Assembly (NCBI GenBank): GCA_035636095.1
Contig: DASPZU010000015.1
Location: 15,371 to 79,370, forward strand
Source: Thermoanaerobaculia bacterium
GTDB taxonomy: Bacteria; Acidobacteriota; Thermoanaerobaculia; Gp7-AA8
Direction of reading: 5' to 3'
Length of the DNA: 64,000 nt
Position numbers and translations under genes: made by a program. The number at the start of each line of letters is the position of its first letter. Position 1 is the first letter of the stretch. Below, piece by piece: positions 3,699 to 61,728 of the stretch. The notes beneath the pieces are model-generated. The model was not told where the DNA came from, did no database searches, and saw nothing but the letters and a program-made list of their open reading frames with translations.

Positions 3699-3758
3699 CC
3701 GCCCACGCGCCCGGTTGGGACGTTGGGATGTTGGGATGAGGGCTGTATGGCAGCCCTC
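3699..3758 (+). repeat. Left arm of a heptamer-array inverted repeat plus a terminator-like GC hairpin
   Basis: Leader CCCACGCGCCCGG is followed by (GTTGGGA)x3, then the hairpin GAGGGCTG-tatgg-CAGCCCTC and a U-rich tail. The mirror copy lies at 4143-4196. Confidence 0.6.
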
Positions 3759-4101
3759 ATCTTCGTCTGACGTAGCCGATGTATCCCTCCAGGGCGCGTC
3801 GCGATTCGTCGAGAGTTTCGAAGGGTTCTTTGCGCCGCAAGTAACCTACGCGTTCAGCGATGATCAGCTGCGTCTCGAGCTCGAACAATGATCCACGGGC
3901 CTGACTCAGAAATTGCCTTCGCTCACCCGAAGTCAGACGTCCTTCACCTTCAGCAATATTTGAGGGGATTGAGACCGCACTCTTTCGCACCTGATGCGTC
4001 AACCCGTAAATTTCTCGGCCGGGAAAAGCGTCAGTCACACGATAGATTTGCTCACAGAGAGTCATGGCGTGTTGCCACGCGACAAGGTCCTTGTAATTCA
4101 T
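3757..4101 (-). CDS. Four-helix-bundle protein (23S rRNA intervening-sequence protein / Avd-like family)
   Basis: 114 aa starting MNYKDLVAWQ...IYGLTHQVRKSAVSIPSNIAEGEGR...FLSQARGSLFELETQL, which is characteristic of the TIGR02436/PF05635-type four-helix bundle. ATG start at 4101. Confidence 0.8.
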   Translation of the reverse strand: MNYKDLVAWQHAMTLCEQIYRVTDAFPGREIYGLTHQVRKSAVSIPSNIAEGEGRLTSGERRQFLSQARGSLFELETQLIIAERVGYLRRKEPFETLDESRRALEGYIGYVRRR

Positions 4102-4142: not shown

Positions 4143-4196
4143 TCGTGTGGGACACAGATCCTAACATCCTAACGTCCCAACCGGGTGGGTGGGGGG
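4143..4196 (-). repeat. Right arm (inverted copy) of the heptamer-array repeat
   Basis: On the minus strand it reads CCCACCCACCCGG + GTTGGGACGTTAGGATGTTAGGAT, about 27/29 identical to 3711-3739 in inverted orientation. Confidence 0.6.
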
Positions 4197-12429: not shown

Positions 12430-12462
12430 AAGGACTGGGGACTGAGGACTGAGAGTCAGTCG
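12430..12462 (-). repeat. Heptamer-array hairpin (GGACTGR x3 / GAGTCAGTC) overlapping the stop codon of the DUF4097 gene
   Basis: aaGGACTGGGGACTGAGGACTGAGAGTCAGTCgtc. It lies between two co-directional genes, so it is likely an intrinsic terminator. Confidence 0.5.
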
Positions 12463-14195: not shown

Positions 14196-14267
14196 GGTAA
14201 GGCCGGTAAGGCGGGTAAGTAGGGTGGTAGCCCCGTCTTACCGGCCTTACGTCCTTACTGTCCTTAC
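14196..14267 (+). repeat. Hairpin built from a 9-nt tandem unit (GGTAAGGCS x3-4 / inverse CTTACNGKC) between convergent genes
   Basis: GGTAAGGCCGGTAAGGCGGGTAAGTAGGGTGGTAGccccGTCTTACCGGCCTTACGTCCTTACTGTCCTTA. It spans both stop codons. Confidence 0.55.
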
Positions 14268-29294: not shown

Positions 29295-30400
29295 GCGCCG
29301 ACCGCAACCTCGACGTAGGGCGTGATGTCGAAGTTACGCTCGTGGAGTTCGTGAATGCGCTCCATCTCGGCGTCGCTGAGCGGCGGATGATCGGATGCTG
29401 ATGCAAACTCGCGGAGCTGCTGGTCGTCGTAGATGTTGGGCAGCACGGACACGATGCTGCGATGCGCGTACTGCCACAGGAGCGCGAACTGGCCGATCGT
29501 GACGCTTCGCGCGTCGCACATCGGTTTGAGTCGATCGACCTTCTGCAGTCCTTCCACCAGCCACGCGCGCGGACGATGCGAGCGGTGATCGTTCTCATCG
29601 AACTTCGTGTCGAGCGTGTACTTCCCTTCCAGCATGCCCGACGAATGCGGCACGCGGACGAGAAATTGCGGCTGCGGGTTCGCCTTCCAGGCGCGGAAAT
29701 TTGAGTCGAAGAAGCTCGTGCGCGTGCAAAGTTTCTTGTGCGTCTGACCCTGCATCGCCTCCGGCACTGCCGGATACGATGCGCCGCGCTCGGCGGCCAG
29801 CATGAACTCGCGTCCGGGATCCTGCTCCAGGAGGTTGTAGATCATCTGCGTGACCGGAGCCTTGCGCATTGCGGTAGCGTAAATGCCCTCGTCACGCCAT
29901 CCGATCGCCGGACCGAGCGACGGGCCGTACGACTGAATCTTTCCTTCGCGTTTCAGCGCCTCGAGCGTGTCCCAATGCTCGTCCTGCATGAGGACATCCA
30001 CGCGCGGATTGTGGGGTTGATAAATCGCGATGGTGCCGACGCCGAGGCGCTGCAGCGATTGCTCGCAGGCAAAGCGGATGAACTTCGGCGACATGTCCTG
30101 CGGCAGCTCGCGCTGACCGCGCGGGCGCTCGGGGTTGTTGTAGAAGTCGTATCCGAATTTCGTACCGATGACGAGATCGCGGTGCTCTTTCAGAATCGGC
30201 TTCAGGATCGATTCGCCGCGGCCGTTGCCGTAGGCATCGGCGGTGTCGATGTAGTTGATGCCGAGGTCGATGGCGGAGCGGATCAGGTCCTGCGCTTGTG
30301 TGTCGGTGTAGTCGCCCCACCAGCCCGTCGACACCGTCCAGGTACCGAAGCCGAGCTCGGAGAGTGTTAGGTCTGTGCCGTGTAATTTTCGGTATCGCAT
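29291..30400 (-). CDS. Aldo/keto reductase
   Basis: LGFGTW...IDTADAYGNGRGE is the AKR N-terminus. Confidence 0.9.
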   Translation of the reverse strand: MRYRKLHGTDLTLSELGFGTWTVSTGWWGDYTDTQAQDLIRSAIDLGINYIDTADAYGNGRGESILKPILKEHRDLVIGTKFGYDFYNNPERPRGQRELPQDMSPKFIRFACEQSLQRLGVGTIAIYQPHNPRVDVLMQDEHWDTLEALKREGKIQSYGPSLGPAIGWRDEGIYATAMRKAPVTQMIYNLLEQDPGREFMLAAERGASYPAVPEAMQGQTHKKLCTRTSFFDSNFRAWKANPQPQFLVRVPHSSGMLEGKYTLDTKFDENDHRSHRPRAWLVEGLQKVDRLKPMCDARSVTIGQFALLWQYAHRSIVSVLPNIYDDQQLREFASASDHPPLSDAEMERIHELHERNFDITPYVEVAVGA

Positions 30401-30466
30401 GGTTGCTGGGTTACTGGGTTGCTAGGTTGCTAAAGGGTTGCTCAGCAACCGAGCAACCCAGCAACT
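30401..30466 (-). repeat. Heptamer-array hairpin (GGTTGCT x4 / AGCAACC x3) between the crotonase stop and the AKR start
   Basis: GGTTGCTGGGTTACTGGGTTGCTAGGTTGCTaaaGGGTTGCTCAGCAACCGAGCAACCCAGCAACtattttc. Confidence 0.6.
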
Positions 30467-31265
30467 ATTTTCCCGCAAATTGCGGTTTACGTTTCTGGTT
30501 GTATGCCCCCAGCCCTTCCTTGGCATCGTCGCTCTGGAAGAGTTGCTGCTGCAGCTCGCGCTCGACCGCCAGCGCGCTTTCGAGCGGGATTTCCCAGCCC
30601 GTTTGCACGGAGCGTTTGATGCGGCCAACAGCTTTCGCGGCTTTGTTAGGCGGACAGAAACTCCACGCGTACTCCATGACGCGGTCCCACCACTTCCGCC
30701 CACCCTCCTCTGCCGGCCACACGTAGTTGACGATGCCCCATTCCCGCGCCTGCTCGAACTCGAACAGATTGCCTTCGCCCATGAGCTGGATCGCACGTGA
30801 CTTGCCGACCAGGCGCGACAACCGCTGGGTGCCGCCGGTGCCCGGCAGAACGCCCAGCGTGACTTCCGGCAGACCGACTTTGCCTGCGCCCTTGAGCGCG
30901 ATGCGAATGTCGGCCGCCATCGCGATTTCCAATCCACCGCCGACGGTGTGGCCGTTCAGCGCGGCGATCACCAGCTTCGGCGTCTGCTCGAGGCGCAGCA
31001 GCGTCTCATTCGCATGCAGGCAGAAGAAGTATTTGAACTGCGGTGTGACCTCGGAAAGCATCTTGATGTTTGCGCCGGCGGAGAAAAACTTCTCGCCTGC
31101 GCCGCGCATCACGATCACGTGGACGTCGTCATCCATCCGCGCCTTCAGGATGCAGTCATCCAGCTCGCGGTTCATCTCGTAGGTGTAGGTGTTGGCGGGA
31201 GGGTCGTTGAGCTCGAAAATCGCAACGCCCTTCTCCACGCGGTAGTCGATTAAGTTTCCAGCCAT
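30465..31265 (-). CDS. Enoyl-CoA hydratase/isomerase (crotonase) family protein
   Basis: ATG at 31265. MRGAGEKFFSAGANI and a crotonase fold. Confidence 0.85.
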   Translation of the reverse strand: MAGNLIDYRVEKGVAIFELNDPPANTYTYEMNRELDDCILKARMDDDVHVIVMRGAGEKFFSAGANIKMLSEVTPQFKYFFCLHANETLLRLEQTPKLVIAALNGHTVGGGLEIAMAADIRIALKGAGKVGLPEVTLGVLPGTGGTQRLSRLVGKSRAIQLMGEGNLFEFEQAREWGIVNYVWPAEEGGRKWWDRVMEYAWSFCPPNKAAKAVGRIKRSVQTGWEIPLESALAVERELQQQLFQSDDAKEGLGAYNQKRKPQFAGK

Positions 31266-32374: not shown

Positions 32375-32442
32375 AGTCCTGAGTCCTGAGTGCGAGTCCT
32401 GAGTTTATATGGCTCAGTCTGCTCAGGACTCAGCACTCAGGA
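32375..32442 (+). repeat. Heptamer-array hairpin (AGTCCTG x3 / CTCAGGA x3) in the divergent pfk/glsB promoter region
   Basis: AGTCCTGAGTCCTGAGTGCGAGTCCTGAGtttatatggCTCAGTCTGCTCAGGACTCAGCACTCAGGA. It shares the same heptamer as the hairpin at 58894-58967. Confidence 0.6.
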
Positions 32443-32510
32443 ATCGGCACTGTGCTTGCTCATCCATTAGCCCGTCAGCATCACGCTGACGAAAGCTTGG
32501 AGGAAAGAGC

Positions 32511-45945: not shown

Positions 45946-48048
45946 TCAGCGGACGGTGATCGTTACAGAATCGCGGCGGCCTTCGTCGTCGACGGCGGTG
46001 ATCGTGTGCCTGCCCCCGCGCAGAGACCACGCGTCATCTGTGTGACGGCCATCGACCATCCACGTTACGGGAGCGGTGGCTTTGAGCTGAAGCGCCTGGA
46101 ACTCGGCACGAAGGGTTGGATCGATCCAGTAAGTCGCGCCCTCGGCGGGATTCAAGATGTGAAGGACAGGCGAGCGACGGGCTGAAGCCGGACCCACATC
46201 CCAGGCGCGATATTCAGCAGGCAATTCAACGCGCTGCGAGTGATGCCACGAACAGAATTCGACGCGATTTGAGGCGGGCATCCACTCGCTTTCGACGGCG
46301 GGACACTCCATCGACGGACGATGGCCGGAGAGCGCGCAAATCGGCCGCCGCTCGAGATCGGCAGGACGATCGACGATCGTTCCCCGCCCGCCCCCCACTC
46401 TCTTCACGGCCGCCAGCATCACGTCGTGAAAAATCGGCGCGGCGCCGGTGATGCCGCTCGAGTTGCGCAACTCGCTGCGATCGAAATTCCCCACCCACAC
46501 GCCGACAGTGATTTCGCGCGTGTACCCGACCGTCCAGTTGTCGCGATAGGCCTGCGAAGTTCCGGTCTTCACGGCGACCTGGAATGGGAAATCGAGACTG
46601 CCGCCCGATCCGAAGATGTACTCGCGGGCGTGTTCATCGCTGAGGATGTCGGTGATCCAGAACGCGGTGCGCTGCGACATCACGCCATCACCGCCGCGCG
46701 CGAAGATGGCATACGCCGTCACCAACTGCTCCAGGGTCACCTCGGCATCGCCGAGCGTCAGGCCGACTCCGTAGTAGTCGGCGGTGTGCGTGAGATCACG
46801 GAAGCCGGCGTGGCGAAGGAATCGCAGCAGCGACTCGGGACCGATTTTGGCGAGCGTCGCCACTGCCGGCACGTTTTCCGACCCGGCAAGCGCGACGCGC
46901 GCGCGCAGTGGTCCGCGAAATTTTCCATCGTAGTTGCGGGGCGTGTAGATGACGCCCGGCTCAGCAGTCGCGAAATGCGACGGCACGTCCGCGATGACCG
47001 TGGCGGGAGTCAAGCCTTGCTCGAAAGCGAGCGCGTACGTCAACGGCTTCAGAGTCGATCCAGGCTGGCGCAGCGTCGTCACGCCATCGATCGCGCCGCC
47101 GAAATTTTCACCGAAGTAATCGCCCGAGCCTTCCCACGCCAGCCATTCGCGCGTCCGATTGTCGAGGACCGCGATCGCGACGCTGTGCGCGCCGTGGCGC
47201 AGCAGATCGGAGCGATGCGCCGCGATGATGCCGTGGATTTCGCGCTGGAGATTTGCATCGAGAGAGGTGCGAATGATCGCCGCCGAGGTCGACGGCGCTC
47301 CACTGAGAATCCGCGCGACAAAATGCGGCGCGATCATCGGATGGCGTCCGCGGTCGAACGACAAACGCTCCGCGCGAGCGGTGCGGTAGTCGGGCTCGGA
47401 GATCATCTTCAGCTCACGCAGGCGGCGGAGGATCAAGCGTTGACGCTGTAGCGCGAGCCTGGGCGTTCCGGGTCGTCGCGGCAAAGCCGCCAGATATGCC
47501 GCCTGCGCGATGGTGAGTTGATCAGGCTGGCAGCCGAAGTAGCGATCGCTCGCGCGCGCGATTCCCACGGTCTGCTGGCCATAAGGGGCCAGATTCAGGT
47601 ACAACGCCAGAATCTCGGCCTTGGAGTGACGATGCTCGAGTCTGAGCGCCGTGATCGCCTCGCGAACTTTCGAGCGGACGCTGCGCGGCGCGCCCGGAAC
47701 CATGAGCTTCGCGACTTGCTGCGTGATCGTCGATCCCCCTTCGACGACGCGCACGTGCAGGAGATTGTGGAAGGCCGCTCGCGCGGTGCCGATCGGATCG
47801 ATGCCGATGTGATGGTAAAAGCGGTGATCTTCCGCGGCCATGGCGGCCTTGGCGATGTTGTCGGGAATCGCCGTGATCCAGGTGCTGCGCGTCCCATTTG
47901 CCGACAGCGGCTCGGAAAGAATGATGCCGTTGCGATCGACGATGGTCGGCGTCGTCTCGGGTCTGATCTCTGGAATCGGCCCAATTCGCATCCAAATAGC
48001 GAGACTGATGACCGACAACAGACAACCGACAACCGACAACTTTTTCAA
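45946..48048 (-). CDS. pbpC: Penicillin-binding protein 1C (glycosyltransferase + transpeptidase)
   Basis: GT51 motifs AEDHRFYHHIGID and GGSTITQQVAKL, with a transpeptidase domain. TTG start overlaps the A2M stop (TTGA). The signal peptide is encoded by (CCGACAA)n. Confidence 0.85.
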   Translation of the reverse strand: MKKLSVVGCLLSVISLAIWMRIGPIPEIRPETTPTIVDRNGIILSEPLSANGTRSTWITAIPDNIAKAAMAAEDHRFYHHIGIDPIGTARAAFHNLLHVRVVEGGSTITQQVAKLMVPGAPRSVRSKVREAITALRLEHRHSKAEILALYLNLAPYGQQTVGIARASDRYFGCQPDQLTIAQAAYLAALPRRPGTPRLALQRQRLILRRLRELKMISEPDYRTARAERLSFDRGRHPMIAPHFVARILSGAPSTSAAIIRTSLDANLQREIHGIIAAHRSDLLRHGAHSVAIAVLDNRTREWLAWEGSGDYFGENFGGAIDGVTTLRQPGSTLKPLTYALAFEQGLTPATVIADVPSHFATAEPGVIYTPRNYDGKFRGPLRARVALAGSENVPAVATLAKIGPESLLRFLRHAGFRDLTHTADYYGVGLTLGDAEVTLEQLVTAYAIFARGGDGVMSQRTAFWITDILSDEHAREYIFGSGGSLDFPFQVAVKTGTSQAYRDNWTVGYTREITVGVWVGNFDRSELRNSSGITGAAPIFHDVMLAAVKRVGGGRGTIVDRPADLERRPICALSGHRPSMECPAVESEWMPASNRVEFCSWHHSQRVELPAEYRAWDVGPASARRSPVLHILNPAEGATYWIDPTLRAEFQALQLKATAPVTWMVDGRHTDDAWSLRGGRHTITAVDDEGRRDSVTITVR

Positions 48049-51000
48049 GGCTTGACCTCCACGACGTCGGTGGAGGTGCGGCCGAACACTTCCGGCTCAT
48101 ACATCTCCTCGACGCGCGCAGGGGCGGCGATGAATGTGCCGGCGGTCGTGGCGCGGACGAGGTACGTGAATTCGTGGACGCCTTCATCGAGCCGCGTCGC
48201 AAAAAGATTGACGCGATCGTCGTGGCGCTCGATGTGATCGAACCCGCCGTGGCGCCACCACGACGTCCAGTCGTAGTTCTCGGGATTGTCGGTTCGAAGC
48301 TGCTCGGACATTTCCGAGGCCGTGGTCGCGAACCAGGTGTCGACCGGCTCGGTGCCGGCCGGAATCGGATCGGTGACCGCCACGTAGCGGCGCTCCTTGG
48401 TGTTGCGCAAGCGGAGCGTGACCTTGATCAGATCGCCGGCTTTGAAATCCTTCTGCGAGTAATGCCGCTCGATCGAGAATCCGCGGTCGGCAGAATCGTG
48501 GAAGATGCCTGTCAGGCCATACTTCAGCGTCACGAGGTAGAACAGCGTGCCGGTGCCCTCGCGGTTGAAGATCACCGCCGAGGTCGGCGGTGCTCCACTG
48601 AGCTTCATCATCGGCACGTCGTGCGTCTTGGCCTCGGTCGTCCTTCCGCGGAATTCGTCGCGCGCGATGACGGAGTCGGCAACCGTCGCGGTGGCGGTGA
48701 AATTCGGCGGTTCCTTCTCGTAGCGCTTGTAGTAATCGATGAGCGATTCCATCGCCCAGGCGTTCTCCTGCGTGTTGCCCCAGCGCCCTTTCACGCGCAC
48801 CTTCATCAGCCAGCGCACGATCTGCTTTGTCATCTGCTCATCGGCGGTATTGCGGACCAGCGCGTCGAGAACGATGGCGCTGCTTCGCACGTTGGAATTC
48901 CAGAACCACAGCAGGTACGGATCGGCCAGCTCCTCGACATGCGCCGTTCCACCTTCGGGAAGAATCGCGTTGTTGATGCGGCGCAGGAGCTCGGTGCGAT
49001 GCTGCGGGTCGGCATCGGCGAGAAATGCGATGCCGAAGACCGGCATACGATCGACATACGAATACAGCCGGTTGATATGGCTGTCCTCGTTGCGTCCGCC
49101 CTCGACCAGCACTTTGACCGCGAAGGCTTGCCAGGCAGTGTAGGCCGGCCACCAGCCTTCGTTCTCCGGCCGCTGCTCCTTGAGACTGCCGTCGAGATAG
49201 TCGTACGCGCGTTTGAGAACATCGGCGCTGACGTCGTAGTTCAACTTCTGTCCGCGCTGCAGCACGTGAACGACGTTGGCGGTCAGATATGGCGACGTGA
49301 ACCGGCAATCGCCCGGCCAGTAGGCGAATCCGCCGTTGGGACACTGGAACTTGTATAGCTCGATGATCGTCTGCTGCGCGATGGTACGACCCTTCTTGGC
49401 GTCGATGCCCGGCAGCGCGAAGGCGTCGCCGAGGTCGGCGGTGAGCATGAGGGCCATGGCGCCGGACGCGCGTTGCTCGGCGCATCCGTACGGATATTCG
49501 ACCAGATACTCCGCCCCCTCGGCCAGACCGACCATGGCGGTCGATGACAGCTCCAGGTGCAGGCCGCCAATCGACGGCACGACGTCGTGCGGAACTTCGA
49601 GAGTTTCCCTGGCAGTCGGTTTCGCTTCGCCGTAGGCCGCGACAGTTTCGGTGGGACTGAGCAGGCGAACCGGTAGCACATCTTCGAACGCGTCGCTCTC
49701 GCCGTTCAGATTGACGGTCATTTGAAGGCGCGCGACGCCGACCGATTTCGCAGCAGCGTTGAATCGAACTTCCGCCGTCCCCTGCGGCCCGACATCGATC
49801 GCTGAAGTTGGATCGCCGGTGATCTCGACGATCGCCGGATCGAGCGATTTGATCGTGACCGTCGCTCTACCGCCTTGTTTCAACTGCGAGTGGACCACCG
49901 ATCCGAAATAGGCCTTGTCGCCGAGGGCCAGGAATCGCGGGAAGGCCTGGGTGAGCAGCACGGGCTTGTTGATGCGGATCTCGTTTTGTCCCCAGCCGAA
50001 TCGCGAGACCTTGTCACCCGCGACGGCCATGATGCGATAGGTCGTCAGCGATTCAGGCAATGTCACGTCAGCGTGCGCGCGGCCGCGCGCGTCGGTCGCG
50101 ATCGAGCCAAGCCAAAACGCCAGGACGCGGAAGTCGCGCCGCATCATCCCCGGCCCCGACTCCGCCCCGCCGCCCCCACCCTGCGTCGCTCCCTTGGGCG
50201 TCAACACACGCCGGCTGACGATTTTCTGCCGCGAATCGTCGTTGACGACCTGCAGCGCCTTGCTGATGTAGATCGATTCGAGCACGTCCGGCGTTCGGTA
50301 GCCGGTCAGCGAGAGCACGCCGTAGTCGACTGCCCATAGCGTGACTTCAGAACGAACTGCTTTCCCATCCACGTCATGAACGTTGACGTCGACGCTGGCC
50401 CTGGCGGCCGGACGAAACTCGCTGCTGTTCGCTTTGACGTCGACCTTGAGGCGCTTGGTTGCATCCTCGACTTGCAGCTCGACGTAGCCGAGTCGAAACG
50501 TCGGCTTGCCGGGGTCGCTTTCGTCTTCGACGCCCTCCTTCGTCCGGCCTTTGACGAGCAACACCGAGACGAAAACATTGGGGATCTCGTGCTCGGTGAT
50601 CGGCACCGTGACGGTTTGCTGCGTCGAGGTCAGCTCGAATGGCGTCCAGGTGCGCACGCCTTCTCGCTCGGTGGTCAGCAGCGCTGTGGCGCGCTCCCAC
50701 GGCGACTTGATCATGATGCGGGCCGTTTCGCCGGGGCGATACGTTTTCCGTTCCGGCACGAGGTCGATGCGGTTGCTGTCGTATCGCGCCCATGCCGTGT
50801 AGCCGGGACCGAGGGCGTAGAACCAACTGCGCGTGGTCGTCGATCGGCCTTGCGCATCGGATGCACGCGCAATGAGGACGTATTCGCCGCCGTCGTTCAA
50901 GGGCACATGCAGCGGCACCGGTTGCCCCTCCGAAGTGATCGTCCACGTGCCGGCCGGGATTTCCTTACGCTTCGTTTCCCAGGTGTAAAAACCGTTTCCG

Positions 51001-53753
51001 GTGGCGGAGCGGACGCTGTTCCACTGGATGCGGTGCAAATCGACAGTCACCGTGACGCCGGGAGCGGCCTCGCCGTTCAGCCCGACCGCGACGATGGAAG
51101 TGTCAATGCCCCTGGCAGCCTCAGCGAAGTACGGTGGCGCCTTGGTACCAATGTACCAAGGTAGCGGATCGACTCGGAAGGAGGCGCGGTTGGCGATGTG
51201 CTGGCGCGAGACGTCGGTCACGTCGCCTTCGAGGGTGTACGTGAACGGCCAGCCCGCCTTGAGGTCGGTGTCGAGATCGAGAGTGAGCAGCCCCTTGGCG
51301 TTCACCTTGGCGTCTTTTTTCGCGATCGTCCCGCCGGGGATGTTCTCCTCGTAGTCGCGTCCGAGAAAAGTGAATTGGTCTTCCGGATATCGATCGCGGA
51401 TCGCGGCCGGCACGTCGTAGGCCATCGATTTCGAGTACGTCCATTGCACCGGCCGCGAGGCCATCGGCGCGCCGAAGAGATACTGCGCGCTGACGGTGCC
51501 GGTCAGCTTCGTCCCAGCGATGGTGCTGGGCGAGTTGAGCGTAACGTCGACTCGGAAATCAGGGCGCCGATAGGCCGCCACCAGAAAACTTCCATAGACG
51601 CGAAGATGTTGCCCTTTCGCTCGTGCCAGAACCTGATAGCCGCCCAGCACGCCCTCGGCGGGAATGGTCATCGTCCATTCGGAGCTGCTCCACTCGTTGA
51701 GGTTGACGGTCCGCTTGTCGATTTCTTTGTCGTGGCTGTCGCGGACGCTGACGTCGACCGCGGTTTGTGGCAGCAGCTGCACTCCCGTCGGCGTGTCGCC
51801 GCGCAGGACGGCCTTGAAGTGCACCTCTTCGCCGAGCTTGTAGACGCCGCGGTCGGTGAAGACCTGGCCGCGAAGCAGCGAACCTGCTTCGGCCAGATTG
51901 AAGCTCGTTCCGAATTCCCACGGCTGCACGCCCTCATTCCAATTGCTGGCGGCGTAGGCCATGTCGCCGTCCTTTTCGGCAACCACGATGAAGTGAAGAT
52001 CGCCGAGCGCCGGCCACTCATTGACGTACTCCTCCTCGTCGGGCTTGGGTTCTTTCCGTTCGGCTCGCAGATCGGTGTTAGGCGCGACGACAATCCCATG
52101 CTCGTCGGTCGAACCGGTCCAAAACACTTTGTTGTCGGTTGTCCGAATCGAGACCTTGACTCCCGCCACCGGCGCCGCCGTGTCGAGTCGGGCGATCAGA
52201 ATCAGCGTGTTCTGCGGGCTGTCCTTGATCGAAATGCCGAGGTTCGTGACTTGCACCAGGGTGGAGGCGGTCTGGCCGACGATTGCGTGTGCGCGTGGGA
52301 TGGGTTGGCCGGCCTGCACTGCCGCCCACACAAATCCGTGGCCGTTGGCGCCGAGCACCGATTTCAGATTCAAACCGTAGGATTGGATCTTGTCGGGAAC
52401 CGGAGCAAACTTGCGTTCCGACGAAGCGGAAGGCGGCGTCTGATGAAACCCGTTCTTCTCCAGCTCGAGCATGGTCGGCATCATCTGCTCGATGGACAGC
52501 GGCATCATCCACTGCGTCGCGTTCTGAAAGTTTCGTGAGTGGAATGGAAGTACCGTTCCTCCGCTCGACTCCCACACCCCGTGTCCGTCCCCGAAGCTGA
52601 TGAAGGCCCGCTTGTGCCAATACTCGATCAAGCCCGTCCAGGTGTATCCGAGCTTTTGACCATCTTCGGATTCGAGATTCGGATCGACCCGGACTGCGTA
52701 TGTGTGCGCCGGCTGCAGCGAGAATCCGAGCTCGTCGAGACTCACGGAACTCGTGATGTTCCGCCAGTCGGGAACTTCGCGCTTCGCCCGAACGAGCGGA
52801 ACCTTGTGTGCGGGGTCCGTTACGTCCGCGACCTGGACCGCGTCGCGGATGTGCTCCCAGCTCGCGGAAGCGCGCAGCCCGATGGGGTTGTAATCTTCCG
52901 GCTCGCATTCCTTCTTGCACCAGAGCCCCGACACGAACAACGTTTGCCCGAGCTGAATGGTGTACGACTGATTGCGCCCGCTTGCGACTCTTCCGCTTCT
53001 TTCGACGAGCTTCTCATCGAGATAAACCTGAATCCAGGTATCGGGTGGAATTCCAGGCTTCGTTTCGACCACCACCAGATCTTTCGCGGGCGGAAAGAGC
53101 TTCTTGTCCCACTCGGTCGGAAAGAACGACAGAATCGGGACGCCATCGGACGCCGCTGCCTCTCGCGCCGCTGCAACTTTGGCCTCGAAGGCAGAATCGT
53201 TTTCGGCCGGAGCGTCAGGCTCGGGTAATTCGTGCGCTTTCGTTCGAAGCTGCAGATGCTGGCCGATGGTGTTGGCGTCGACGGGCTGATTGAATCGCAA
53301 TGCGATCACGACCGGCGCATCGAATCGGCCCCCCTTGCGATTCCAGTTGGTATTGAGAAGCGCGATGGTCGGCGTCGTGAACGAAAAGTCGTAGGCCTGA
53401 TCGAGCGTCTTGCCGCTGACGGCTTTCGCGTCGGCGTCGATGGTGACATCGAATTTCGTCGCGAACGGCAGCGGCGTTTTCGGATCGGGTGTGAAGATCA
53501 GCGTGGTCGTGCCGGACCAGCGAAAAATTCCGCTGACTTGCGGCGCGATGTGAAAAAAAGGAGCGGCAACGACTTTCGGGATTTTGCCGAGGACTACCAT
53601 CGGCTCAGAGAAGACGACCCGAATCTCGTTCGCTTCAGCGAGGCTGGCGATCTCGCCGACCGGACCCGCCTTGACAATGGTCAGCTTGTCGGCCGCGCGG
53701 GCGCCTGCCGCCACGAGCATGAGGAGGATGCAAACTGCCGCTTGACGAATCAT
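48045..53753 (-). CDS. Bacterial alpha-2-macroglobulin family protein (YfhM/ECAM-like), thioester-containing
   Basis: 1902 aa. Signal peptide MIRQAAVCILLMLVAAGARA. Thioester motif YPYGCAEQ. Classic pairing with pbpC. Confidence 0.9.
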   Translation of the reverse strand: MIRQAAVCILLMLVAAGARAADKLTIVKAGPVGEIASLAEANEIRVVFSEPMVVLGKIPKVVAAPFFHIAPQVSGIFRWSGTTTLIFTPDPKTPLPFATKFDVTIDADAKAVSGKTLDQAYDFSFTTPTIALLNTNWNRKGGRFDAPVVIALRFNQPVDANTIGQHLQLRTKAHELPEPDAPAENDSAFEAKVAAAREAAASDGVPILSFFPTEWDKKLFPPAKDLVVVETKPGIPPDTWIQVYLDEKLVERSGRVASGRNQSYTIQLGQTLFVSGLWCKKECEPEDYNPIGLRASASWEHIRDAVQVADVTDPAHKVPLVRAKREVPDWRNITSSVSLDELGFSLQPAHTYAVRVDPNLESEDGQKLGYTWTGLIEYWHKRAFISFGDGHGVWESSGGTVLPFHSRNFQNATQWMMPLSIEQMMPTMLELEKNGFHQTPPSASSERKFAPVPDKIQSYGLNLKSVLGANGHGFVWAAVQAGQPIPRAHAIVGQTASTLVQVTNLGISIKDSPQNTLILIARLDTAAPVAGVKVSIRTTDNKVFWTGSTDEHGIVVAPNTDLRAERKEPKPDEEEYVNEWPALGDLHFIVVAEKDGDMAYAASNWNEGVQPWEFGTSFNLAEAGSLLRGQVFTDRGVYKLGEEVHFKAVLRGDTPTGVQLLPQTAVDVSVRDSHDKEIDKRTVNLNEWSSSEWTMTIPAEGVLGGYQVLARAKGQHLRVYGSFLVAAYRRPDFRVDVTLNSPSTIAGTKLTGTVSAQYLFGAPMASRPVQWTYSKSMAYDVPAAIRDRYPEDQFTFLGRDYEENIPGGTIAKKDAKVNAKGLLTLDLDTDLKAGWPFTYTLEGDVTDVSRQHIANRASFRVDPLPWYIGTKAPPYFAEAARGIDTSIVAVGLNGEAAPGVTVTVDLHRIQWNSVRSATGNGFYTWETKRKEIPAGTWTITSEGQPVPLHVPLNDGGEYVLIARASDAQGRSTTTRSWFYALGPGYTAWARYDSNRIDLVPERKTYRPGETARIMIKSPWERATALLTTEREGVRTWTPFELTSTQQTVTVPITEHEIPNVFVSVLLVKGRTKEGVEDESDPGKPTFRLGYVELQVEDATKRLKVDVKANSSEFRPAARASVDVNVHDVDGKAVRSEVTLWAVDYGVLSLTGYRTPDVLESIYISKALQVVNDDSRQKIVSRRVLTPKGATQGGGGGAESGPGMMRRDFRVLAFWLGSIATDARGRAHADVTLPESLTTYRIMAVAGDKVSRFGWGQNEIRINKPVLLTQAFPRFLALGDKAYFGSVVHSQLKQGGRATVTIKSLDPAIVEITGDPTSAIDVGPQGTAEVRFNAAAKSVGVARLQMTVNLNGESDAFEDVLPVRLLSPTETVAAYGEAKPTARETLEVPHDVVPSIGGLHLELSSTAMVGLAEGAEYLVEYPYGCAEQRASGAMALMLTADLGDAFALPGIDAKKGRTIAQQTIIELYKFQCPNGGFAYWPGDCRFTSPYLTANVVHVLQRGQKLNYDVSADVLKRAYDYLDGSLKEQRPENEGWWPAYTAWQAFAVKVLVEGGRNEDSHINRLYSYVDRMPVFGIAFLADADPQHRTELLRRINNAILPEGGTAHVEELADPYLLWFWNSNVRSSAIVLDALVRNTADEQMTKQIVRWLMKVRVKGRWGNTQENAWAMESLIDYYKRYEKEPPNFTATATVADSVIARDEFRGRTTEAKTHDVPMMKLSGAPPTSAVIFNREGTGTLFYLVTLKYGLTGIFHDSADRGFSIERHYSQKDFKAGDLIKVTLRLRNTKERRYVAVTDPIPAGTEPVDTWFATTASEMSEQLRTDNPENYDWTSWWRHGGFDHIERHDDRVNLFATRLDEGVHEFTYLVRATTAGTFIAAPARVEEMYEPEVFGRTSTDVVEVKP

Positions 53754-57280: not shown

Positions 57281-58119
57281 CGCAGTGGACGCATCCGCTG
57301 CTGCAAGAGCCAGCGCGCCATTCCGGCGTCGGCGTAGGCAAGATCCCACGCATCGTGTCCAATGCCCGGATACTCGGTGTATGTCACCGTTCCACCGCCG
57401 CGCCGAAGAGCTTCGACCATGTTGCGCGACTCGCGCACGGGAACTTCATCGTCCCTGGTTCCGTGAAACGCCCACACCGGGGTCGTGCCGATTGCCTGTG
57501 CCAATGCCGAATATGGATCGGGCGCACCGACGATGCGCGCGATGTCCGGCGGCAGCTCGACCGGAAACGGATCGGCGGGATCGCGTGCGACTTCGCCGCA
57601 GATCGGAACCACAGCCGCGAATCTCCGGCGATGGCGCGCCATGTACCACGCACCCGTCCCGCCCATCGAGATGCCGGTGAGGTACACCCGTCGCCGATCG
57701 CCATGGAATTCGCGAATCGAGCTTTCGAGCGCTGCCATCACCTGCGATTCCATGTCGCCGTACCACTCCTGCCCGAAGCCGCATTGCGGAAAGATCACCA
57801 CCGCTTTGTACCGGTCGCCGAAATGCTCGAGTGCCGGAGCGAGACCTAACGCCAGTTGCCTTTCGTTGTCATCGCCCCGCTCATTGCTGCCGTGCAGAAA
57901 GAGAATCACCGGCCAGTGATGCACCTTCGTGTAATGCGGCGGCAGCCAGACGCGATAGCGATACTGATGATCGCCGAGGGAGACGCTGCGCTCGAGAAAA
58001 CGAGACTCGCGGGCGCAGGACAGGAGAAGGCAGAAGGCAAAAAGCAGAAGGCAGAAGTAAGAAGATTGCTTTGCGGTTACTTCTGCCTTCTGCCTTCTGC
58101 TTTCTGCCTTTTCGATCAC
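57277..58119 (-). CDS. Alpha/beta-hydrolase esterase (phospholipase/carboxylesterase or PHB-depolymerase-like), probable lipoprotein
   Basis: ILFLHGSNERGDD...GISMGGTGAW...GHDAW gives a Ser-Asp-His triad. The only start compatible with the upstream GT2 stop is GTG at 58119 (GTGA overlap). That gives a signal peptide ...YFCLLLFAFCLLLSC (lipobox) encoded by the GAAGGCA/TGCCTTC hairpin. The track N-terminus of about 130 aa is spurious. Confidence 0.65.
   Translation of the reverse strand: MIEKAESRRQKAEVTAKQSSYFCLLLFAFCLLLSCARESRFLERSVSLGDHQYRYRVWLPPHYTKVHHWPVILFLHGSNERGDDNERQLALGLAPALEHFGDRYKAVVIFPQCGFGQEWYGDMESQVMAALESSIREFHGDRRRVYLTGISMGGTGAWYMARHRRRFAAVVPICGEVARDPADPFPVELPPDIARIVGAPDPYSALAQAIGTTPVWAFHGTRDDEVPVRESRNMVEALRRGGGTVTYTEYPGIGHDAWDLAYADAGMARWLLQQRMRPLR
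58026..58110 (-). repeat. Heptamer-array hairpin (GAAGGCA x4 / TGCCTTC x4) inside the 5' end of the esterase CDS
   Basis: GAAGGCAGAAGGCAAAAAGCAGAAGGCAGAAGtaagaagattgctttgcggttaCTTCTGCCTTCTGCCTTCTGCTTTCTGCCTT. Confidence 0.65.
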
Positions 58120-58829
58120 TCGAACAGATCGTATTCGGTGACCGGCAGCGGCGACGACTGCTCCGCCATGTCGGACTGCCAGGTCGCGAAGACATACAGA
58201 TCCCAATGGAGGAGAAAAACCTCGCGACTCATTTCCCAGCGCGCGGCAAGGCCCGGCCACAATCCGCGTTTGCTCTCTTTGATGAGGTGGCCGAGGTTGT
58301 AGACGATGGTCTGCTGTTGCCGGAAGCCGGCGTGCGAGCAGAAAAAGTTGAGGGCGGCCTCGATCTTGAAGCGCTCCTGATACCGCACCGGAACGGTCTC
58401 CCACACTGCCCGGCGCATGACTCGGATGCCGGAAAGAACTGGACCGACCTTCATCTGCAGATGGAAAAAGTTGCGGATCCAGCCGCGGCTGCGCACGCCG
58501 ATGTTCATGTCGCATTGGTCGCGCAGAACGGGCGTAATGAGCGCTGCGATGTGATCGTCGGTGACGTCGAACATATCGCCATCGACAAAGAAGAGGATGT
58601 CGTGCCGGGCGTAGTCCACGCCGACGCGCATGGCGTATCCCTTGCCGCGGTTCTCGCGCAGGGCAATGGTGGTGACATCGAAGGAGCGGGCGATCTCGAC
58701 GGTGGCATCGGTCGAGCCGTCGCTGACCACGATGATTTCGTCAATCAGCCGGTTACGCGTCAGTACCGTGAGGACTTCAGCGATCGTTTTCTCTTCGTTA
58801 TACGCGGCGATGATTGCCGAAATCCCCAA
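58116..58829 (-). CDS. Family-2 glycosyltransferase
   Basis: ISAIIAAYNEE...VVSDGSTD...FVDGD carries the GT2 DxD and D motifs. TTG start. Confidence 0.8.
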   Translation of the reverse strand: MGISAIIAAYNEEKTIAEVLTVLTRNRLIDEIIVVSDGSTDATVEIARSFDVTTIALRENRGKGYAMRVGVDYARHDILFFVDGDMFDVTDDHIAALITPVLRDQCDMNIGVRSRGWIRNFFHLQMKVGPVLSGIRVMRRAVWETVPVRYQERFKIEAALNFFCSHAGFRQQQTIVYNLGHLIKESKRGLWPGLAARWEMSREVFLLHWDLYVFATWQSDMAEQSSPLPVTEYDLFE

Positions 58830-58893
58830 ACTTCACCTCAAAACGCCACTCTCTTTGCAACCGGCAGACCATAACACACCCGCCCACCCGCCC

Positions 58894-58967
58894 GGTCCTG
58901 AGTGCTGAGTCCTGAGTCCTGAGTCCTGAGCGGGCGAGTGTGTCTCAGGACTCAGAACTCAGGACTC
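58894..58967 (+). repeat. Heptamer-array hairpin (GTCCTGA x5 / TCAGGAC x3) in a divergent promoter region, with a CCCACCCGCCCGG leader
   Basis: cgcCCACCCGCCCGGTCCTGAGTGCTGAGTCCTGAGTCCTGAGTCCTGAGcgggcgagtgtgtCTCAGGACTCAGAACTCAGGACTC. Confidence 0.65.
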
Positions 58968-58988
58968 GCTTTTGCAGAACTCGCCAGC

Positions 58989-59447
58989 ATGAGACGCACA
59001 CTTACTTACGTATCGGTTTTGTTTTTGTTGAGCGGCTGCAACACGCTCGCGAATCTGCACATCATCAACCCGACCTATTCGATTCGGGGTATCGACCCGC
59101 GCGTCAACCTCGGGATCCCGCCCACGATGGACTTTGACTTCACGGTGGGCGTCGACAACCCGAATTCAGTCGCGCTGCGACTCGATCACTTCGATTTCGA
59201 TTTGTTGATCAACAACAATCGGGTGCTGAACAACGTTCGCAGCGATCAGGGCATCCACATCCCGGCACGCGGTACCGGCGACGTGCATCTGACATCGCAT
59301 GTCACGTACGACAACCTCCGGACGATCTTTAACGAAGTGGCAAACGTCGTCCAGGGGAACCGCGCCACGTACGCCATTCAAGGCAATGCCTATTACGACA
59401 CGCCGGCGGGCCGGGTGCAGTTCCCCGTAACGGTTTATTCGCGTTAG
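58989..59447 (+). CDS. LEA_2 / WHy-domain lipoprotein
   Basis: ATG at 58989. MRRTLTYVSVLFLLSGC lipobox. FTVGVDNPNSVALRLDHFDFDL is typical of the WHy/LEA14 fold. Confidence 0.6.
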   Translation: MRRTLTYVSVLFLLSGCNTLANLHIINPTYSIRGIDPRVNLGIPPTMDFDFTVGVDNPNSVALRLDHFDFDLLINNNRVLNNVRSDQGIHIPARGTGDVHLTSHVTYDNLRTIFNEVANVVQGNRATYAIQGNAYYDTPAGRVQFPVTVYSR

Positions 59448-59873: not shown

Positions 59874-61067
59874 TTGTCGGAACGCCAGCGCACCCCTCTC
59901 GCCGTGGGCGCGATCGCAGCCGTGCTCTACTTTTCGGAAGGTCTGCCGTACGGCATCGTCACCGAGCTCGTCCCGCTGTATCTGCGCGTCGAGCACATCG
60001 AGCTCAAGGTCATCGGTCTCGCGAGCAGCGTGACCATCGCCTGGACGCTGAAGTTCTTGTGGTCGCCGCTGGTCGACACCTTCGGCACGTATCGGCGGTG
60101 GATCGCCGGTGCGCTCATCGTGATCGCGGGTGTGTTAGGCGCGATCGCGGTTCTGCCGGCCACCGTCACCGCCATCTTTTACGCGCTGGTGGCCCTCATG
60201 GCCCTGGGATCCGCGACGCAGGACATCGCGGTCGACGCATTCACGATTCGCGCGACGCCCACATCGATGCTCGGCCCCGTCAACTCGATCCGAGTGACTG
60301 CCTACCGCGTGGCAATGATGGTCGGCGCGGGCGGACTGGCCATCGTCGCGGGGCGGGTGGGATGGCGGACGGCGTGGGGCGTTGCGGCGACCCTGGCGGC
60401 CGGGATCCTGATCTTCGCGCTCATGTTGCCCGACGATCGTGGCGAACGGAAAGAACAGTCGAGCGTCTTCGCCGATCTCGCGCATTGGCTGCGCAGGCCG
60501 CGCGCCGGAATTCTGCTCACCATCGTTTTTCTCTATCGGATCGGCGAGTTTGCGATCGTGACGATGATCAAGCCGTACTGGGTCGACCGCGGCTATTCGC
60601 CTGCCGAGATCGGTACCATCACCAGCGTGGTCGGCGCACTCGCCATCATCGGCGGCGCGATTATCGGCGGTTGGTTCGTCGCGAAATTCGGAATGGTCGC
60701 CGGCCTGCTCTGGCTGGGCGTGGCGCAGACGCTCTCCAACCTCGGATACGCGATGGTGGCCACCATGCATGCGGGCCGATGGGCGATTTACGCCGCCGCG
60801 ATTGTAGAAAACCTCGGTTACGGCCTCGGCAACGCTGCCTTCCTCGCCTATCTGATGTCGATCTGCGATCGCGAACGCGCCGCGACAGAATATGCGCTGC
60901 TGTCGGCAGCCTTCGGACTCACCGGCGCTGCCGTCCGCGCCGGCAGCGGCTACGTGGCGCAGTACGCCGGCTATCCGTTCTATTTCTGGCTCACCGTGTT
61001 CCTCGGCATTCCGGTGCTGTTTCTGATTCCGCGAATCCGCGATGAAGCATCGATTCTTCGTTCCTGA
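59874..61067 (+). CDS. MFS transporter (AmpG/LplT-like)
   Basis: 12 transmembrane segments. The start is uncertain: TTG at 59874 with AAGGA upstream, or GTG at 59844. The track ORF at 59670 overlaps the convergent lipoprotein. Confidence 0.75.
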   Translation: MSERQRTPLAVGAIAAVLYFSEGLPYGIVTELVPLYLRVEHIELKVIGLASSVTIAWTLKFLWSPLVDTFGTYRRWIAGALIVIAGVLGAIAVLPATVTAIFYALVALMALGSATQDIAVDAFTIRATPTSMLGPVNSIRVTAYRVAMMVGAGGLAIVAGRVGWRTAWGVAATLAAGILIFALMLPDDRGERKEQSSVFADLAHWLRRPRAGILLTIVFLYRIGEFAIVTMIKPYWVDRGYSPAEIGTITSVVGALAIIGGAIIGGWFVAKFGMVAGLLWLGVAQTLSNLGYAMVATMHAGRWAIYAAAIVENLGYGLGNAAFLAYLMSICDRERAATEYALLSAAFGLTGAAVRAGSGYVAQYAGYPFYFWLTVFLGIPVLFLIPRIRDEASILRS

Positions 61068-61728
61068 TCGCGTTGAAGTCGGCGCGACCATCGCCCTCCA
61101 CTCGGAGGAGCGACATCACGCGCGCGTGTTGCGAGTGCGCGAAGGGGAAGAAGTCGAGATCTTCGATTCGCAAGGCAGAAATTTTGTTGCGCGTCTCGAC
61201 GATCCGGATTCGATCGCGATACTTCGCGAATCTGAGAGCCGAGAACTGAGAACCGAGATCCGACTCGCGATGTCGATCATTCAGCTCGAGAAATTCGAGC
61301 TCGTTCTGCAAAAAGCGACCGAGTTAGGCGTGGCGTCCTTCATTCCGCTGATCACCGACCGCATGGAAGTGCGCATCGAGCGTTTGCGCGGAAGAGAAGA
61401 TCGCTGGAAAAAAATCGTGCTGGAAGCGGTCAAGCAATCGGGACGCTCAAAAATCCCGGTGATCGAAACGCCAACGGAATTCGACGACGCCATCAAACGT
61501 GAAGGGACAAAGATCATTTTCGATGCCGACACACCGCCAGCAACCGAGCAACCGAGCAACCCAGCAACCCTTTTCATCGGTCCCGAAGGCGGCTTTTCCG
61601 AACGCGAATTACAGCTCGCGCGCGCATCCGGTGCAGCGTTGGAACAACTCGGGCCGCGACGGTTGCGCGCCGAAACTGCCGCCATCGTAGCGGTCGCGCT
61701 GGTCGCTGCGAGAAGTGGCGACATTTGA
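61042..61728 (+). CDS. rsmE: 16S rRNA (uracil1498-N3)-methyltransferase RsmE
   Basis: MKHRFFVP..., LFIGPEGGFSERE and LGPRRLRAETA. It carries an in-frame heptamer-array insert (PATEQPSNPAT) just before IGPEGG. Confidence 0.85.
   Translation: MKHRFFVPDRVEVGATIALHSEERHHARVLRVREGEEVEIFDSQGRNFVARLDDPDSIAILRESESRELRTEIRLAMSIIQLEKFELVLQKATELGVASFIPLITDRMEVRIERLRGREDRWKKIVLEAVKQSGRSKIPVIETPTEFDDAIKREGTKIIFDADTPPATEQPSNPATLFIGPEGGFSERELQLARASGAALEQLGPRRLRAETAAIVAVALVAARSGDI

Follow-up and report, generated by a model that had tools for sequence, protein, structure and literature searches.

The 16S rRNA methyltransferase gene rsmE, in a 64,000-nucleotide stretch of contig DASPZU010000015.1 from a Thermoanaerobaculia bacterium (hereafter the window), contains an octanucleotide tandem array within the loop that precedes its IGPEGG motif (site 2). 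Our comparison with orthologous genes suggests, with a probability of roughly 0.6, that this array is an old resident microsatellite in a tolerant coil, the frame and length of which are selected while its copies are homogenised at the DNA level. The initial annotation of the window had interpreted the array as one arm of an intergenic hairpin at 30.4 kb that invaded rsmE and was tolerated as a surface-loop insertion. The kinship of the unit with intergenic hairpin arms and its in-frame position in a coil were borne out, whereas an insertion and an invasion by the 30.4-kb arm are not supported by the data described below.

An octamer array in the RsmE loop

The product of the host gene is identified as RsmE by both its domains and its motifs. 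It matches Pfam PF04452 (Methyltrans_RNA; E 1.3e-41, 142.4 bits) and, at the N-terminus, PUA_4 (32.3 bits), both above the curated cut-off of 23.9 bits, and the C-terminal knot motifs (IGPEGG, RRLRAETA) are intact and in frame 3' of the repeat, with G180-P181-E182-G183 and R206-R207-L208-R209 invariant in 35 orthologues. The protein is 100% identical to that of a Thermoanaerobaculia metagenome-assembled genome (MAG; phylum Acidobacteriota), solved RsmE homologues in the PDB align to it with E values down to 4e-34, and orthologues at 62-83% identity comprise 227-229 amino acids (aa) and are all gapless at the repeat loop. The orthologue set consists of 81 genes, the window gene and 80 from metagenome loci (confirmed by tblastn and given L numbers), and favours intact genes; rsmE of L199 and L200, the closest genomes, lies outside it.

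The repeat strings named in the initial annotation are present as CAGCAACCGAGCAACCGAGCAACCCAGCAACCCTTTTC in rsmE (61538-61575) and TCAGCAACCGAGCAACCCAGCAACTATTTTC in the hairpin (30442-30472), and the common register and unit order of the two loci are reflected in an exact 22-mer, AGCAACCGAGCAACCCAGCAAC, found at 61547-61568 and 30444-30465. The rsmE array has a period of 8 with 95% matches (Tandem Repeats Finder; Table 1) and encodes, as annotated, the in-frame peptide PATEQPSNPAT before IGPEGG, at residues 166-176 within the segment ...DADTPPATEQPSNPATLFIGPEGG, its last GCA ACC specifying Ala175-Thr176, the first residues of the strand leading into IGPEGG. Three units make up 24 nt, or 8 codons, so that successive units are each read in a different frame and yield the eight-residue peptide A-T-x-Q-P-x-N-x without repetition at the protein level; selection on the protein therefore cannot have made the 8-nt periodicity. 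In the AlphaFold2 model of RsmE (mean predicted local distance difference test score, pLDDT, 84.5) both array sites of the gene fall in coils, and residues 161-174, between strands 156-160 and 175-179, form a coil that is also the block of lowest pLDDT. The window contains 15 copies of AGCAACC compared with 5.3 +/- 2.1 in shuffles, none of 100 shuffles reaching 15, and 10 of the 15 copies sit in the rsmE array and the 30.4-kb hairpin. Site 2 shows the head-to-tail copies beyond chance that characterise long simple sequence repeats (LSSR). Folding of the array RNA indicated no self-structure (-3.6 kcal/mol, z +0.36), and no GGTTGCT partner arm was found near rsmE, the nearest minus-strand AGCAACC match in the window being at 50771; the two complementary arms of an inserted mobile repeat are thus absent at this locus.

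The array is shared widely among the orthologues. GCAACC-like cores, three to four per gene, occur in the exact register of the window in 30 of the 81 genes, down to 59% masked amino-acid identity, and all of these arrays end on the codon of the invariant Thr176. Clear 7/8-nt periodicity was detected at site 2 in 32 genes, compared with 67 of 6824 background windows, while in about half of the orthologues the array is decayed or absent with the loop length unchanged. The loop from FDAD to LFIG is most often 13 residues long (the mode), both in the 32 array-bearing and in the 49 array-free orthologues. The statement that E. coli RsmE has no such spacer proved incorrect, since the E. coli segment (PDB 4e8b, ...LHPRASnsiNTLPLPVERVRLLIGPEGG) is three residues longer than that of the window, and in the other solved homologues shown the segment is equal or longer; these lengths speak against an insertion. 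Array-bearing orthologues keep about four copies and a loop of 12-14 residues (30 of 32) and vary in unit sequence instead, and the copy-number polymorphism expected of slippage in LSSR is not seen among them. With an 8-nt unit in codons 166-176 and a 7-nt unit in codons 65-74, both arrays have non-triplet units inside an open reading frame (ORF), and all 81 genes read the site 2 region in frame, with no sign of on/off frame switching; the absence of frameshifted or copy-number-variant alleles is a weak negative in a sample that favours intact genes.

What changes between orthologues is the unit, and it changes jointly across copies (Table 1). The two spacer bases of a unit fix three residues together, and uniform CA, CG and GC spacers predict ATQQPSNPAT, ATRQPGNPAT and ATAQPRNRAT, respectively, exactly the peptides observed. 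Identical spacer pairs within a gene reached 2.43, a value attained in none of 5000 permutations, compared with 1.35 +/- 0.16 under independent evolution of the positions. Of the Ala codons in the loop 48% are GCA, but only 11% in the remainder of these genes; for CAA among Gln codons the shares are 66% and 36%. Codon choice in the loop follows the repeat rather than the usage of the gene, which places the cause at the DNA level and not at the peptide level. Over 33 nt the array matches that of the window at 28-32 positions in L008, L005, L029, L065, L038 and L025, whose rsmE genes are only 65-75% identical to the window gene overall, yet at just 17-25 positions in the closest relatives L001, L002, L004 and L009; close relatives (79-84% aa identity) have ACAACCCG, GACAACC or GGCCACC units. 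Conservation of the array is bimodal in the compared sequences, either near-frozen including synonymous sites or interrupted by wholesale replacement of the unit. Such retention in divergent genes, together with the common register in 30 orthologues, is at odds with an invasion by the hairpin arm. It had also been proposed that the match should be regarded as chance if close orthologues carried Pro/Thr/Gln linkers of similar length encoded by non-repetitive DNA: linkers of similar length are indeed present, but many are encoded by repetitive DNA, so that chance low complexity does not account for them.

A second array in the same gene (site 1) encodes residues 65-74, SRELRTEIRL within ESESRELRTEIRL, of which residues 65-72 form the modelled coil between the PUA and methyltransferase domains. 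Relatives carry AACCGAG units at this site, in 4.6 copies (96-100% matches) in L001 and L002 and 4.3 copies in L004, or AACCGCG-type units in 3.4-4.9 copies in L005, L006, L007, L010 and L017. The array covers the R-E codons (CGC GAA) conserved across RsmE, which in outgroups stand in the quasi-repeat GAT CGC GAA GCG CGG ACG and in the clade of the window in a perfect repeat of equal length, AAC CGC GAA CCG CGA ACG. From this comparison site 1 looks like a proto-repeat that was homogenised where it stood, and not like an insertion.

The 30.4-kb hairpin and tandem arrays of the lineage

The hairpin that has the 22-mer in common with rsmE is composed of two arrays with a period of 8 that run in opposite directions (30401-30431 and 30443-30465; Tandem Repeats Finder) and occupies the whole 64-nt spacer between two minus-strand genes assigned by Pfam, enoyl-CoA hydratase (ECH, stop codon at 30465-30467) and aldo/keto reductase (AKR, start codon at 30398-30400), an intergenic, convergent pairing of the Xanthomonas/Nostoc type. 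It folds with -41.5 kcal/mol on the minus and -43.5 kcal/mol on the plus strand (z -6.2 and -6.7). The trailing TTTTC cited in support of a common origin is present at both loci but is no evidence of kinship, being a coincidence of neighbouring codons: in rsmE it belongs to CTT TTC (Leu177-Phe178), which most orthologues write as CTC TTC, and the 30.4-kb copy is complementary to GGA AAA, the two final ECH codons (minus strand), which are retained in orthologues whose hairpins use other units. The ECH-AKR pair is syntenic in six relatives (L199-L204), and the spacer (about 2300-2415 of these loci) always contains a hairpin; where its units differ from those of the window (Table 1), the flanking genes are still 75-90% identical at the DNA level. 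Judged from these spacers the ECH-AKR hairpin undergoes much more rapid turnover than does the array in rsmE, and since its units differ among relatives while the rsmE array is kept, it is very unlikely to have been the source of the latter. The right arm stops exactly at the AKR start codon (..ACC ATG) in the window and in L199-L201, and no Shine-Dalgarno-like sequence precedes the AKR start in these loci. A simple scan for canonical intrinsic terminators flagged no tandem-arm hairpin in 30200-30700 or 57900-59100. ECH homologues mostly comprise 266 aa, and several called proteins have 277-323 aa; these longer calls may be genes extended at one end, possibly into stop-free arrays, in which case gene calling in MAGs would be distorted.

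Both arrays of rsmE belong to a class of 7-8-nt arrays that is greatly enriched in this lineage. The window and related loci (392 kb) hold 57 period-7 and 23 period-8 arrays compared with 0.8 and 0 in shuffles, where no period-8 array of at least three copies arose. Most arrays of the window are inverted pairs that form long intergenic hairpins (z -3.9 to -8.4; energies in Table 1) with locus-specific units, among them GTTGGGAT, GGTAAGGNN, GGTTGCTN, AGTCCTG and AGAAGGC, at least seven units being found in 64 kb. Neither a G-tract unit nor one dominant unit, as in Xanthomonas and Nostoc, was found: runs of at least three G are absent from GGTTGCTN, AGTCCTG, AGAAGGC, GGTAAGGNN and ACCGACA, and GTTGGGAT has one GGG. 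A scan for GCAACCNNGCAACCNNGCAACC in one genome per species returned at least 118 loci (counts are lower bounds), 42 of them in Acidobacteriota, mostly Thermoanaerobaculia. Among the matches listed, the 6.6-Mb chromosome OY970284.1 carries at least 13 GCAACCNN arrays in at least 10 loci, many dispersed copies as in a mobile repeat, and CAGCAACC is the commonest unit of the genomic arrays of this family. Typically they take the hairpin form (GGTTGCNN)n - loop - (NNGCAACC)n, in which GGTCTCGN/NCGAGACC units are often nested. Of 51 family arrays, 29 are without a long ORF that spans them, 9 are situated at the edge of an ORF and 13 inside ORF-like frames, of which a few look like real linkers (AQQPSNPATQQP after the signal peptide in L160); outside rsmE at most 4 of 56 arrays (415 kb) are coding, one of these four itself in the PUA region of an rsmE gene. 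The search for intergenic and coding copies called for by the initial annotation thus revealed, in Thermoanaerobaculia genomes, a multi-copy family that is mostly paired in hairpins and mostly non-coding. No Rfam family reached its gathering score anywhere in the window, and RAYT-like genes were not evident around the arrays inspected, in an inspection that included no search aimed at them. A small repertoire of preferred units (AAGGCAG at 12 sites, CTCAGGA and GACAACC at 7 each) was considered and is not claimed; the excess of recurring units is about 2-fold over chance by a rough estimate that allows one mismatch and includes orthologous duplicates in the sample.

Several further arrays were observed in the window. 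The GGTAAGGNN 9-mer hairpin lies between convergent and the AGTCCTG hairpin between divergent genes, AGAAGGC and GTCCTGA hairpins flank a GT2 glycosyltransferase gene, and the CTCAGGA/AGTCCTG unit occurs at three unrelated places. Two 28-nt inverted octamer arrays (3711-3738 and 4158-4185; CCCGGTTGGGACGTTGGGATGTTGGGAT and its complement with 2 mismatches) bracket a minus-strand ORF (3757-4101) for a 114-aa '23S rRNA intervening sequence protein' (PF05635, E 1.6e-32), with a separate GC hairpin at 3739-3760; this locus looks like a small cassette between tandem-repeat arms about 420 nt apart. The heptamer array at 48011-48040 encodes, if TTG at 48048 is the start codon, the hydrophobic N-terminal segment MKKLSVVGCLLSVISLAIW and lies 5 nt 3' of the stop codon that ends the upstream alpha-2-macroglobulin gene (48045-53753); of the two strands of such units, the G/T-rich one gives a hydrophobic peptide and the C/A-rich one Pro/Thr/Gln/Asn linkers.

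Other arrays were noted in related and in more distant genomes. Tandem-arm hairpins with unrelated units stand just upstream of rsmE in many loci, including L025, L028, L044, L056, L073 and L079. At this position L028 (1873-1936) has CAGAATG/ATTCTGC and its relative L044 (2918-2997) CAAAATG/ATTTTGC, a change common to several copies and compensated on the opposite arm. In L054 (376-404) CCGGCAA-type heptamers lie in a long ORF with high G+C content at third codon positions upstream of rsmE and encode ...ETGNRQPPT..., a peptide of the same kind as at rsmE site 2, so that this may be a further case of an array embedded in coding sequence. Unrelated phyla (Bacteroidota, Verrucomicrobiota, Burkholderiales) were seen to carry very long GCAACCNN arrays, with 10-16 units or more (L084, L096, L101, L123, L157, L163, L187 and others), and a 6-unit AAGCAACC array in Helicobacter pylori (L181); the long GCAACCNN arrays, some of them at contig ends, may break assemblies.

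Table 1. Positions of arrays, hairpins and the host gene in the window, and units at the corresponding sites of related loci (L numbers).
Feature	Position or locus	Strand	Details
rsmE (16S rRNA m3U1498 methyltransferase family)	61042-61728	+	228 aa; Pfam PF04452 and PUA_4
Octamer tandem array AGCAACCN x3.9 (site 2)	61539-61569	+	Tandem Repeats Finder and sequence
Degenerate heptamer array, GAGAACC type (site 1)	61234-61263	+	Tandem Repeats Finder: 4.3 copies, 82% matches
Intergenic hairpin, tandem-repeat arms	30401-30465		GGTTGCTN x~5 (30401-30442), then NAGCAACC x3 (30443-30465)
Hairpins, tandem-repeat arms	14196-14267; 32375-32451; 58025-58110; 58895-58967		-37 to -58 kcal/mol
Single three-copy AGGACTG array	12431-12453		in 38-nt spacer
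Heptamer array ACCGACA x4.3 (GTTGTCG sense)	48011-48040	sense minus	PBP1C-type penicillin-binding protein gene (45946-48048)
Site 2 unit AGCAACCN	window, L008		peptide ATEQPSNPAT
Site 2 unit GGCAACCC	L003, L018, L025		peptides ATRQPSNPAT, ATWQPGNPAT, ATRQPGNPAT
Site 2 unit CAGCAACC	L029, L038, L065		peptide ATQQPSNP[AV]T
Site 2 unit CGCAACCG	L036, L053		peptide ATAQPRNRAT
Site 2 unit ACAACCCG	L002		peptide ATRQPDNAAT
Site 2 heptamer GACAACC	L004, L007, L037		TTDNRQPTT in L004, variants in L007 and L037
Site 2 heptamer CCGCCAA	L073, L074		peptide PPTANRQPPT
Site 2 heptamer GGCCACC	L009		peptide GHRPPAT
ECH-AKR spacer	L199, L200		ECH 90% DNA-identical to window; units GGTCTCGN/NCGAGACC
ECH-AKR spacer	L201		ECH 83% DNA-identical to window; units GGTCTCGN/NCGAGACC
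ECH-AKR spacer	L202		ECH 80% DNA-identical to window; AGTCCTG heptamers
ECH-AKR spacer	L204		ECH 80% DNA-identical to window; CATGAGG-type units
ECH-AKR spacer	L203		ECH 81% DNA-identical to window; plain hairpin without tandem units

Origin and maintenance of the array

In the explanation that we favour, the coil at site 2 would tolerate almost any sequence, and the rsmE array, a single and translated arm, belongs to the excess of 7-8-nt arrays in Thermoanaerobaculia and related Acidobacteriota. Its copies would be homogenised either by slipped-strand mispairing, in which unit losses and gains compensate each other, or by conversion of short, misaligned patches inside the array, while selection would preserve the reading frame and a loop of about 13 residues. 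In two or more of the three frames, each position of the unit falls on the first or second base of a codon; a variant spreading through the array would therefore alter several residues at once, and the array would consequently either stay frozen or have all its units replaced. Apart from coding for a loop that is tolerated, it would probably have no function. Several points weigh against this explanation. One-unit slippage implies frameshifted intermediates, none of which occurs among the 81 orthologues, a sample that favours intact genes; the spacer permutation and codon tests take no account of the common descent of the sequences; that (CAGCAACC)n is strongly conserved in distant lineages could reflect a function exerted as DNA or RNA, or else conversion out of the dispersed family; and rsmE, with its two array sites, is an unusual host, which tolerance alone may not explain.

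Conversion from outside the gene is the subject of two further proposals. Ectopic gene conversion from dispersed GGTTGCNN/NNGCAACC arms and GACAACC-type arrays, overwriting or homogenising an existing rsmE array, is in our view unlikely but deserves consideration, because the family is multi-copy in single genomes such as that of OY970284.1, the arrays 'frozen' in distant rsmE genes consist of the commonest unit of the family, the closest relatives diverge most at the array, and GACAACC, which replaces GCAACCNN in rsmE of L004, L007 and L037, is also arrayed at 48011-48040 and at other loci. The rsmE array and the 30.4-kb arm, besides the 22-mer, have a common CA-GA-(GA)-CA spacer order; however, CA/GA alternation is common across the family, which makes this order weak evidence. 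Moreover, no donor-recipient pair was demonstrated, the 30.4-kb hairpin turns over faster than its supposed recipient, and site 1 appears to have arisen in place. Still less likely is the broader proposal that the 7-8-nt arrays represent, instead of passive microsatellites, an actively copying, dispersed hairpin family whose units are replaced at orthologous sites and which can overwrite tolerant coding loops by templated conversion with their length unchanged, rsmE being a long-term recipient; if true, this would describe a repeat element that spreads by conversion and not by insertion, or what a dedicated enzyme specific to the lineage produces.

Alternatively, the array could be a functional cis element, namely a slippage-prone on/off switch of rsmE (phase variation) or a stretch of unstructured, C/A-rich mRNA to which a factor binds, for instance RsmE itself through a mimic of its substrate. 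In E. coli 16S rRNA the sequences G-U1498-A-A-C and G-U-A-A-C-C lie eight nucleotides apart, and the final site 2 unit is GTAACC in L005, L038 and L065. The non-triplet unit inside an ORF, DNA-level conservation that extends to synonymous positions, and the outlier status of rsmE as a host with two array sites when arrays are depleted from other coding sequence would also fit such an element. We nevertheless regard it as rather improbable, given that there are only about four units without frameshift or copy-number variants, that the array is missing or decayed in about half of the orthologues with the same loop length, and that the unit, abundant in intergenic hairpins and other ORFs, is not specific to rsmE, which applies to 16S mimicry as well. 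A partner arm is lacking, and pairing of the array in the mRNA with a downstream GGTTGCG in the RRLRAE codons was rejected for want of covariation, the TTG Leu codon of this motif being used in 7 of 24 genes with the array and 17 of 55 without it. Three-frame reading and homogenisation, moreover, already account for the conservation.

A recent insertion of the 30.4-kb arm, or of a sister copy, into rsmE as an extra surface loop would agree with the common unit, the 22-nt identity in equal register and the location of the peptide in a coil. It is highly improbable all the same, as a filled site would be longer than an empty one and the array adds no length relative to repeat-free orthologues or solved RsmE structures, the register is shared by 30 of the 81 genes, the hairpin units differ in relatives with flanking genes 75-90% identical in DNA, and the TTTTC match is coincidental. 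This last coincidence, along with the compositional bias of the linker, is what could be said for a chance low-complexity similarity in a Pro/Thr/Gln-rich linker, to which we assign next to no weight: this candidate was rejected on the grounds of the shuffles, in which period-8 arrays of at least three copies never arose, the AGCAACC enrichment, and the use of the non-preferred GCA and CAA codons that keeps the repeat, while a non-repetitive peptide leaves protein selection unable to yield an 8-nt periodicity.

Relation to known repeats and significance

LSSR with units of 5-11 nt, among which heptamers are the commonest class, have been attributed to polymerase slippage and are found for the most part in non-pathogens whose genomes are large and GC-rich (Mrazek et al., 2007, as summarised in PMC4679880 and PMC4692102), and according to one of these summaries those inside genes mostly have units in multiples of three (Mrazek et al., 2007, in PMC4679880). 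The arrays of this lineage resemble LSSR in their head-to-tail 7-8-nt units far beyond chance. Unlike LSSR, however, rsmE holds 8-nt and 7-nt units in a housekeeping gene, fixed at about four copies and conserved in position across orthologues, and varies in unit sequence rather than in copy number. A non-triplet unit in an ORF, where a one-unit change shifts the frame, is also found in phase-variable contingency loci such as the tetranucleotide and heptanucleotide simple sequence repeats of Haemophilus; in contrast to these, the rsmE array has about four units without variants among the 81 orthologues and resides in an rRNA-modification gene, not in a surface or restriction-modification gene.

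Paired convergent heptamer arrays capable of forming stem-loops are known from Xanthomonas (GGGAATC, 70-75 pairs per genome) and Nostoc (GGGGAYT) (Rehm et al., 2015, PMC4692102), and related intergenic heptamers include the cyanobacterial STRR and the TAACTGA repeats of Beggiatoaceae (PMC4679880). Such intergenic tandem heptamers are under-represented in coding sequence, and the period of a peptide translated from them equals the unit length (PMC4692102, PMC4679880). The intergenic arrays described here likewise pair on opposite strands and avoid coding sequence, but instead of one dominant G-tract unit with G-quadruplex potential there are many units without G-tracts, which differ between relatives at one orthologous spacer, and the coding copy is old and conserved. 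With REP/REPIN sequences and MITE-like palindromes, as portrayed in an excerpt of PMC3116915, they have in common that they are dispersed, multi-copy, hairpin-forming and intergenic and evolve within genomes; they differ from the elements portrayed there in that the arms are tandem arrays and the rsmE copy adds no length, and the tandem-arm arrays showed neither a full-length consensus that is conserved nor any terminal repeats or target duplications. The tandem repeats of Borg elements, in the partial account drawn from PMC9879509, are similarly fast-evolving DNA repeats encoding disordered protein segments; in rsmE, unlike in that account, the unit is non-triplet, the peptide is not a repeat, and the array replaces an existing loop without adding a region. 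A limited literature search returned no description of a tandem-arm repeat landscape in Acidobacteria, which is no proof of novelty. The present case differs from the described ones in its many G-tract-free units, their turnover at orthologous spacers, and two non-triplet arrays at conserved positions in a housekeeping gene that vary in unit and not in copy number.

The rsmE array opens no long-standing question. It does offer a clear instance from nature of a microsatellite with a non-triplet unit that has long resided in a housekeeping gene, read in three frames with its copies co-evolving and with an encoded loop that jumps between discrete states (ATQQPSNPAT, ATRQPGNPAT, ATAQPRNRAT, TTDNRQPTT), and it shows that the residues of a protein loop can be determined by a mutational process at the DNA level instead of by protein-level selection. 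For the Thermoanaerobaculia, our analysis points to abundant tandem-arm hairpins whose units turn over at fixed intergenic sites, a feature that matters for gene calling, MAG assembly and studies of terminators and mRNA stability in this common soil lineage.

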